A stretch of 64,000 bases of DNA from contig WJJZ01000001.1 of assembly GCA_014729395.1 (NCBI GenBank), forward strand, positions 67,727 through 131,726, written 5' to 3'. Under the pieces are notes generated by a model. It saw only the letters and a program-made list of their open reading frames with translations. It searched no databases and was not told where the DNA came from. This document shows positions 58,855-58,965 of the stretch, in pieces (position 1 is the stretch's first letter; each line of letters begins with the position of its first letter). A program made the translations under genes and the position numbers. Source of the stretch: Candidatus Magasanikiibacteriota bacterium (lineage in GTDB: Bacteria; Patescibacteriota; Patescibacteriia; Magasanikbacterales; UBA922).

Positions 58855-58965
58855 AAAAAGTAAATGGTAAATGGTAAATAGTAAATAGACTCTTTAGATA
58901 GTTTAGTCTGAAAATAAAATATTTACCGTTTACCAATTTCTATTTACTGTTTACTAGATCTGTTT
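58855..58965. repeat. GGTAAAT-array inverted-repeat element, copy A
   Basis: Left arm GTAAATGGTAAATGGTAAATA (58860-58880), right arm ATTTACCGTTTACCAATTTCTATTTACTGTTTACTA (58921-58956); the same arms recur at 62420-62493. Confidence 0.55.

Follow-up and report, generated by a model that had tools for sequence, protein, structure and literature searches.

Heptanucleotide repeat arrays at three gene junctions of a citrate-cleavage operon in a Candidatus Magasanikiibacteriota genome

Genes and repeat elements of the citrate-cleavage locus

Three related repeat elements, termed A, B, and C, lie between genes of a putative citrate-cleavage operon in the 64-kb stretch of DNA analyzed here, which is referred to as the window. 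Every gene around the elements is on the minus strand, a point on which the initial annotation is corrected. In gene-sense order, the locus consists of a ccsA-like gene (62498-63679), element B, a ccsB-like gene (61509-62399), a HAD hydrolase gene (60778-61446), an open reading frame (ORF) of 282 aa (59809-60657), a GC-rich intrinsic-terminator hairpin with T8 (59765-59790) that closes the upstream transcript just ahead of copy C, copy C itself, a citryl-CoA lyase gene (CCL; 241 aa; 58964-59689), element A, and a TIGR00375/MJ0043_C-type PHP-like gene (427 aa; 57566-58849).

The ccsA-like and ccsB-like genes had been called sucC and sucD, respectively. These calls were replaced: the product of the former combines ATP-grasp and Citrate_bind (PF16114) domains, the product of the latter combines CoA_binding and Ligase_CoA domains, and neither reaches the NCBIfam succinyl-CoA ligase cut-offs, the pair being citryl-CoA synthetase-like instead. 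Some homologues carry the JGI name citryl-CoA synthetase large subunit. The ccsA protein encoded in the window is 100% identical to a protein from a Candidatus Magasanikbacteria metagenome-assembled genome (MAG), and its next relative is 71% identical. The gene described at first as citrate synthase-like passes the NCBIfam cut-off for citryl-CoA lyase (NF004869, 270 bits against a cut-off of 212). The annotation of the locus thus gains a citryl-CoA synthetase and a citryl-CoA lyase in place of sucCD and a citrate synthase. The 427-aa protein is 59% identical to the product of the fourth operon gene of a relative (contig L626). The operon in the window is further interrupted by the HAD hydrolase gene and the 282-aa ORF, and terminator-like hairpins occur there at 60742-60725 and 59790-59765. 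A 94-aa lysine-rich ORF is located at 57251-57535 of the minus strand; it is composed of 33-nt repeats (AAAGAAAGCC...), resembles a histone H1-type basic protein, and has no Pfam match.

Element A is the whole 114-nt spacer (58850-58963, minus strand) between the stop codon of the citryl-CoA lyase gene (58964-58966) and the ATG of the TIGR00375/MJ0043_C-type gene (58849). In order of position, it comprises a GTAAAT arm of four units (58860-58887; GTAAATG, GTAAATG, GTAAATA, and GTAAATA), which on the mRNA strand is the 3′ arm and of the ATTTAC type; a 33-nt centre (58888-58920) with a small inner hairpin (AGACT...AGTCT); and an ATTTAC arm (58921-58956; ATTTACC, GTTTACC, AATTTCT, ATTTACT, GTTTACT, and a final A), the third unit of which, AATTTCT, is irregular. 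Element B (62400-62497, minus strand) occupies all 98 nt that separate the ccsA-like stop codon (62498-62500) from the ccsB-like ATG (62399) and is, as had been claimed, the exact filler of that gap. Its GTAAAT arm (62413-62440; GTAATTT, GTAAATG, GTAAATG, and GTAAATA) is separated by a 17-nt centre, between 62440 and 62458, from an ATTTAC arm (62458-62493; ATTTAAA, ATTTACC, AATTTCT, ATTTACT, ATTTACT, and a final A) whose units follow the order seen in A. Both elements therefore have the layout of a (GTAAATN)3-4 array, a centre of 17 to 33 nt, and an inverted (NATTTAC)5 array. Copy C (59702-59728) is truncated and consists of GTAAGTT, GTAAGTA, GTAAATT, and ACCAAT; it corresponds to the degenerate third copy that had been noticed just upstream of the lyase gene. 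In the mRNA sense, the distance from the last heptamer to the next ATG is 10 nt in A, 13 nt in B, and 12 nt in C, where the ATG is that of the lyase gene (59689). The first heptamer starts 9 nt past the upstream stop codon in A and 6 nt past it in B, again in the mRNA sense. All three copies are located entirely within spacers, i.e., in non-coding DNA.

Two details of the initial annotation required adjustment. It had assigned identical 21-nt arms to A and B. The left arm, GTAAATGGTAAATGGTAAATA, is indeed exact in both (58860-58880 and 62420-62440), but the right arm, ATTTACCAATTTCTATTTACT, is exact in B (62465-62485) and matches A at only 20 of 21 positions (58928-58948), so that the stretch truly identical in the two elements is the 20-mer TTTACCAATTTCTATTTACT. 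The loop, given as 25 to 40 nt, measures 33 nt in A and 17 nt in B.

Relationships among the copies and distribution of heptamer arrays

The arms of A and B are approximately 89% identical, and the two elements agree in the order of their units, in the spacer bases, and in the place of the irregular unit (AATTTCT in plus-strand and AGAAATT in mRNA-strand orientation). Their centres are unrelated and could not be aligned. A BLAST search of the 64-kb window with A recovered only B (28 nt at 96% identity, E = 2e-8, and 21 nt at 100% identity), and besides B no match fell below an E value of 0.02. Copy C keeps the core ATTGGTAA (mRNA strand) of A and B, with TTTAC-type units directly after it, and, to judge from sequence, looks like a copy that has lost most of one arm together with the centre. 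A, B, and C are paralogues and not independent expansions. The locus keeps both arms nearly identical in two copies whose centres have fully diverged. Since the arms are alike and the centres unrelated, either selection on the arms or a gene conversion limited to the arms is needed to account for them.

Five contigs from relatives (L121, L122, and L626 to L628), with ccsA proteins 66 to 70% identical to that of the window, were compared. The operon is kept in all five, in the order ccsA-(insert)-ccsB-(small ORF)-CCL-(ORF)-TIGR00375. Magasanikbacteria thus have a conserved operon for citryl-CoA synthetase-like subunits, citryl-CoA lyase, and a TIGR00375/MJ0043_C PHP-like protein. The gap between ccsA and the next gene (ccsB or the insert) is 1, 1, 1, and 3 nt in four of the relatives, and the fifth has 143 nt of unrelated GC-rich sequence after ccsA. 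The proposal that B breaks a normally tight junction in a co-directional gene cluster therefore stands, with 1 to 3 nt in 4/5 relatives. The gap between CCL and TIGR00375 is 4 nt in L626. Overall, the relatives' counterparts of the three element-bearing junctions measure 1 to 4 nt, with lengths of up to 56 nt ahead of the lyase gene, and no heptamer arrays were found in the orthologous operons of the five relatives. Because the relatives have tight junctions without arrays, A, B, and C are taken to be insertions or expansions private to the lineage, and the junctions that they occupy are ones normally built for translational coupling. It had also been considered that the copies might align to a conserved regulatory site in relatives; such a site was looked for in these five and was not found. 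The description of the elements as specific to this lineage was partly upheld: the composite element is absent from the relatives' operons, but its heptamer building block occurs in many phyla, as described below.

A miniature transposable element, or a REP-like mobile element, inserted three times into the operon would have inverted arms, a size of about 100 nt, and an extragenic site, all of which A and B possess. The copies are also clearly paralogous, and hairpins of similar design, with inner units in common, recur within individual genomes of Pyrinomonadaceae. Like MITEs, A and B are small, non-coding, and bounded by imperfect inverted repeats. However, no consistent direct repeat that could represent a target-site duplication was present at the boundaries of A (AAATCAAAAA / GATCTGTTTA) or B (GATAAGTAATTT / ATTTCTAACC), and the internal sequences of the two are unrelated, unlike those of MITE copies. 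Dispersed, near-identical copies that include the internal sequence were seen neither in the 64-kb window, where BLAST detected no further copy of A or B, nor in a metagenome collection, where the 19-nt core GTAAATAGAAATTGGTAAA had 27 matches, all in unrelated contexts and by chance, none of them an element. No transposase or RAYT was detected among 13 ORFs scanned near the locus. The mobile-element reading of the initial annotation was therefore abandoned as very improbable; nothing demonstrates that the elements are a transposon, and the heptamer from which they are built also occurs outside this lineage.

Enterobacterial REPs are GC-rich sequences of 20 to 40 nt that number in the hundreds and are associated with RAYT transposases. 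A and B share with REP and BIME sequences their form as imperfect palindromes, their extragenic position between co-directional operon genes, and the ability to form hairpins in what would be transcribed RNA. They are longer (98 to 114 nt) than classical REPs, and they differ in having arms made of AU-rich simple heptamer arrays and in being seen only locally within the 64-kb window.

In the 64-kb window, the left arm GTAAATGGTAAATGGTAAATA had five matches at up to three mismatches, compared with 0.01 expected by chance per arm (0/100 shuffles), and GTAAATNGTAAAT, with one mismatch, had 12 matches, compared with 1.3 expected. Tandem Repeats Finder (TRF) reported period-7 arrays of 2.9 to 5.4 copies at 58855-58888, 59698-59719, 62420-62439, and 62456-62501. 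Four clean period-7 arrays were counted in the window, compared with 0.12 expected from order-3 Markov simulations (maximum of two in 100), and three of the four fall within this 3.6-kb locus. The copies have the attributes of heptanucleotide simple-sequence repeats, namely, at least three head-to-tail 7-nt units, a frequency above that predicted from composition, and a non-coding site. The best reading is that A, B, and C are a local case of the known, widespread, and still unexplained heptanucleotide repeats of bacteria and not a new mobile element.

A search of species-representative genomes with the pattern (GTAAATN)3 returned at least 120 loci. The matches listed include Bacteroidota, Acidobacteriota, Verrucomicrobiota, Chloroflexota, Armatimonadota, Cyanobacteria, Patescibacteria, and others. 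Two-thirds of them come from loci whose G+C content is 45% or higher, so that chance is no explanation for this part of the matches listed. Also among the matches listed, 112 of 129 GTAAAT arrays in other genomes are located outside long ORFs, and an inverted partner is present within 170 nt of 23 of 130 arrays (18%). The 120 fetched loci contain 270 arrays of period 7, compared with 26, 15, 8, 4, 0, and 1 of periods 5, 6, 8, 9, 10, and 11, respectively, and many unit types besides GTAAAT are represented among the 270 (matches listed). Close analogues of A and B, in which a co-directional junction is filled from just past the stop codon to 10 to 14 nt before the ATG, were found in other phyla; examples are L036, where the flanking genes read as dnaK and dnaJ, as well as L039, L047, and L120. 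No fixed position or orientation relative to gene starts was apparent among the matches listed, beyond a weak excess within 40 nt (34 sense versus 22 antisense) that is based on crude ORF calls.

GTAAAT was also considered as a special motif. This idea was rejected, as three permuted heptamers of the same composition were as common in a viral collection (among the matches listed), with GC and run-length statistics similar to those of GTAAAT. In the control loci, again among the matches listed, GTAAAT-type arrays made up 5 of 889 arrays.

In Pyrinomonadaceae (Acidobacteriota), GTAAAT/ATTTAC hairpins are recurrent, with several per genome and common inner units GTGAATAG...CTATTCAC (L036, about 1835-1917; L039, 3132-3207; L044, 2412-2487; also L067, L072, and L075). 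They are a REP-like family of heptamer arrays for which no description was found in the literature. Different heptamer units often adjoin among the matches listed (L010, L024, L027, L032, L037, and others). For example, (GTGAGGC)n adjoins (GTAAATC)n in L010, and (GTTAGCT)n adjoins (GTAAATC)n in L027, which suggests that arrays seed or attract each other.

The STRR sequences of heterocystous cyanobacteria, such as Calothrix PCC 7601, are non-coding families of tandem heptamers in which different unit types adjoin. The adjacency of multiple unit types is shared by the fetched GTAAAT loci, and STRR sequences differ from A, B, and C in their units, in their phylum, and in being dispersed at high copy number.

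Heptameric repeats were identified as the over-represented group of long simple-sequence repeats (LSSRs) in bacteria, and polymerase slippage was proposed as their origin (Mrazek 2007, as summarized in PMC4679880 and PMC4692102). About 180 GGGAATC arrays per genome, including inverted pairs, were reported in Xanthomonas, together with GGGGA(C/T)T arrays in Nostoc, one of which is inside the pec operon (pecE-pecF); heptanucleotide repeats in Calothrix PCC 7601 are mentioned in the same paper, whose authors found no function for the arrays (Rehm et al. 2015; PMC4692102). Like these LSSRs, A, B, and C consist of tandem 7-nt units, typically three to five, with few variant positions and a strongly intergenic location, and some of the Xanthomonas and Nostoc arrays form inverted pairs that are capable of stem-loops, as do A and B. 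The copies described here differ from the Xanthomonas and Nostoc arrays in their AT-rich unit (GTAAATN), which is incapable of forming G-quadruplexes, in their CPR host, and in their number and arrangement, with the only three copies that were seen sharing one operon and each full copy forming a complete hairpin.

TAACTGA repeats are located just upstream of start codons in marine Beggiatoaceae, Cyanobacteria, and some Bacteroidetes and have been proposed to act in translational control via S1-, Csp-, or CsrA-type proteins (MacGregor 2015; PMC4679880). These arrays are short (two to six units) and, similar to A, B, and C, end a few nucleotides before the starts of genes without Shine-Dalgarno sequences. 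In both cases the unit contains stop codons, and thus three units close all three reading frames. TAACTGA arrays are abundant genome-wide and comprise 169 direct sets and a single indirect one, whereas A and B are inverted pairs in which the ATG-proximal arm is the complement (ATTTAC). The GTAAAT array strings themselves were not found in a literature search.

Predicted structure, expression signals, and candidate roles

The initial description of a small family of related inverted-repeat elements capable of forming hairpins is supported by folding predictions. With flanks and in the mRNA sense, the minimum free energy (MFE) is −25.3 kcal/mol for A and −20.7 kcal/mol for B (z-scores of −2.4 and −2.0, respectively), and 5 of 200 shuffles fold as well as the flanked elements. 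The corresponding values are −21.7 (A) and −18.5 (B) kcal/mol for the whole spacers alone and −29.9 (A) and −17.6 (B) kcal/mol for the opposite strand. Two T-to-C variants in the 5′ arm of A yield C·A mismatches in the mRNA and G·U pairs in the antisense strand. Because the antisense strand of A folds better for this reason, the sequence holds no preference for the sense RNA. The irregular unit is predicted to be unpaired in both A and B. Other spacers of the genome reach similar folding energies per nucleotide. With Rfam 15, no match to the elements was obtained at gathering scores in the window, and none overlapped them in a scan of 58500-62800 up to E = 10.

A hairpin that keeps the start codon open was considered and rejected: accessibility of the start regions ranks 4, 7, and 17 of 46 and is neither unusually open nor unusually closed. 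Shine-Dalgarno sequences are scarce (6 of 47 genes), and since the genome makes little use of them, their absence behind the elements is not special.

A consensus scan identified terminators at 59790-59765 and 60742-60725 and no intrinsic terminator (GC-rich stem and U tract) at A or B. The sequence UUUUUGAUUU follows A, but the stem of A is AU-rich, and B has no U tract. A scan for sigma-70-like promoters (−35 and −10 boxes with a spacing of 16 to 18 nt) found none on the gene strand in A or B; in both the ccsA-ccsB and the CCL-TIGR00375 junctions, neither terminator nor promoter was found on this strand. A sigma-70-like match (TTTACT, 16 nt, TATAAT; 10/12) is present within copy C at 59693-59720 of the minus strand. 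These results bear on the idea that the ATTTAC(N) units are phased −35-like TTTAC(A/T/C) hexamers of internal promoters that drive the downstream genes. The match in C would suit it, since a strong terminator lies directly upstream and the lyase gene plausibly requires a promoter of its own at this point. However, its −10 box ends only 3 nt before the lyase ATG, this AT-rich DNA yields many promoter-like matches (36 versus 20 expected), and A and B have none on the gene strand, so that internal promoters are the least credible of the explanations considered.

The account that we favor, at a probability of about 0.45, is that the elements are slippage-born, locally copied repeat hairpins that are co-transcribed with the operon and act as REP-like intercistronic stem-loops. 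Under this account, heptamer arrays of GTAAAT plus one base would be born by replication slippage, and with an array on both arms of the palindrome, the whole spacer in A and B would be a long AU-rich hairpin. The three copies would have spread locally, within 3.6 kb, by duplication or gene conversion and come to occupy the junctions ahead of the ccsB, citryl-CoA lyase, and TIGR00375 genes. Transcribed together with these genes, the elements would fold into intercistronic stem-loops, beginning 4 to 9 nt past the upstream stop codon and reaching to 10 to 13 nt ahead of the next AUG, which may exchange stop/start translational coupling for independent initiation without a Shine-Dalgarno sequence. 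Like REP hairpins, the stem-loops may also set segmental mRNA stability or provide a site for a double-strand RNase; the intercistronic REP of malE-malF stabilizes the upstream mRNA. Several observations argue against an RNA-hairpin role. The z-scores are modest, there is no sign of selection for a hairpin on the sense strand, and the full copies number two. In addition, the ccsA and ccsB products are presumably needed in equal amounts, which leaves no obvious reason to uncouple them.

Alternatively, the elements may be neutral simple-sequence DNA, formed by slippage and palindrome-templated copying and tolerated as long as the last 10 to 13 nt before the ATG remain intact. The arrays are not conserved in relatives, the permuted control heptamers are as common as GTAAAT, and GTAAAT-type arrays are few in the control loci (both among the matches listed), all of which is consistent with neutrality, as are the lack of a strand bias toward the mRNA, the frequency of spacers of about 100 nt in the window (22 gaps of at least 70 nt), and the comparable arrays in the literature for which no function was found (PMC4692102). 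What neutrality explains less readily is the approximately 89% identity of arms around unrelated centres, which calls for selection on the arms or arm-limited conversion. A copy also precedes each of the three genes that lie downstream in the conserved operon, always about equally far from the ATG, although occupancy of three of five junctions is only a 1-in-10 pattern. A neutral origin without function is nearly as likely as a REP-like stem-loop role, though we consider it less probable than not.

The position of like units 10 to 13 nt upstream of three functionally linked genes could also reflect binding-site arrays, in RNA or DNA, for a sequence-specific protein that co-regulates the ccsB, lyase, and TIGR00375 genes. 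A multimeric protein of the HutP, TRAP, Csp, or S1 type that binds single strands would fit a register of 7 nt, and the irregular unit is conserved and predicted to be unpaired in both full copies. Such proteins have been proposed for TAACTGA arrays (PMC4679880) and for heptamers in Nostoc, where arrays affect rec gene expression according to a preprint (bioRxiv 10.1101/2022.06.06.494920). Against this, the relatives run the same operon without the site, each element contains both orientations so that half of the sites are the complement, GTAAAT is not special among heptamer arrays, and no candidate protein was identified. Binding-site arrays are thus an unlikely explanation compared with the favored co-transcribed stem-loops.

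More speculatively, GTAAAT/ATTTAC hairpins could be a functional class of intercistronic RNA that is read by a conserved factor, such as a ribosome-associated single-strand binder or a double-strand RNase, and that sets the output of neighboring genes, with the three copies described here forming a post-transcriptional regulon for citrate cleavage. Such a class would span Patescibacteria, Acidobacteriota, Armatimonadota, and other phyla whose members are sparing with Shine-Dalgarno sequences. We consider it very improbable. At this locus, heptameric repeats break up four operon genes that are otherwise tightly coupled, in the small genome of a CPR bacterium, and two 100-nt elements at junctions that were ancestrally 1 to 4 nt provide a compact test case for translational coupling and mRNA stability. 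If the arrays are without effect, the locus is one more example of tolerated slippage DNA.

Other features of the window

The spacer at 26991-27135, between two minus-strand genes, has the same design as A and B with other units. It contains inverted arrays of AT-rich 7-mers, TAAATTT ×3 (27016-27036) and TTCAAAA ×4.3 (27094-27123), with an inner GACT...AGTC hairpin between them, and its predicted fold has an energy of −26.1 kcal/mol. A clean (CTTTCGG) ×4.6 array is located at 27421-27454, inside a 576-aa minus-strand ORF (27136-28866), an unexpected place for a repeat of 7 nt.

Three features concern structured RNAs. A match to bacterial class-A RNase P RNA at 14950-15472 spans 523 nt, compared with the 367 positions of the model, and therefore includes large insertions. 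At 40961-41035, ARAGORN predicted a tRNA with a four-base anticodon (tatc), for which the Rfam tRNA model is silent at its gathering score. The 3′ half (46 nt) of a tRNA-Ile(UAU) gene at 55318-55391 is repeated with 98% identity at 55675-55720, and the two copies flank a short plus-strand ORF (55395-55658), the product of which resembles a GIY-YIG/URI-type nuclease. This arrangement looks like a small insertion into a tRNA gene with duplication of the 3′ half.
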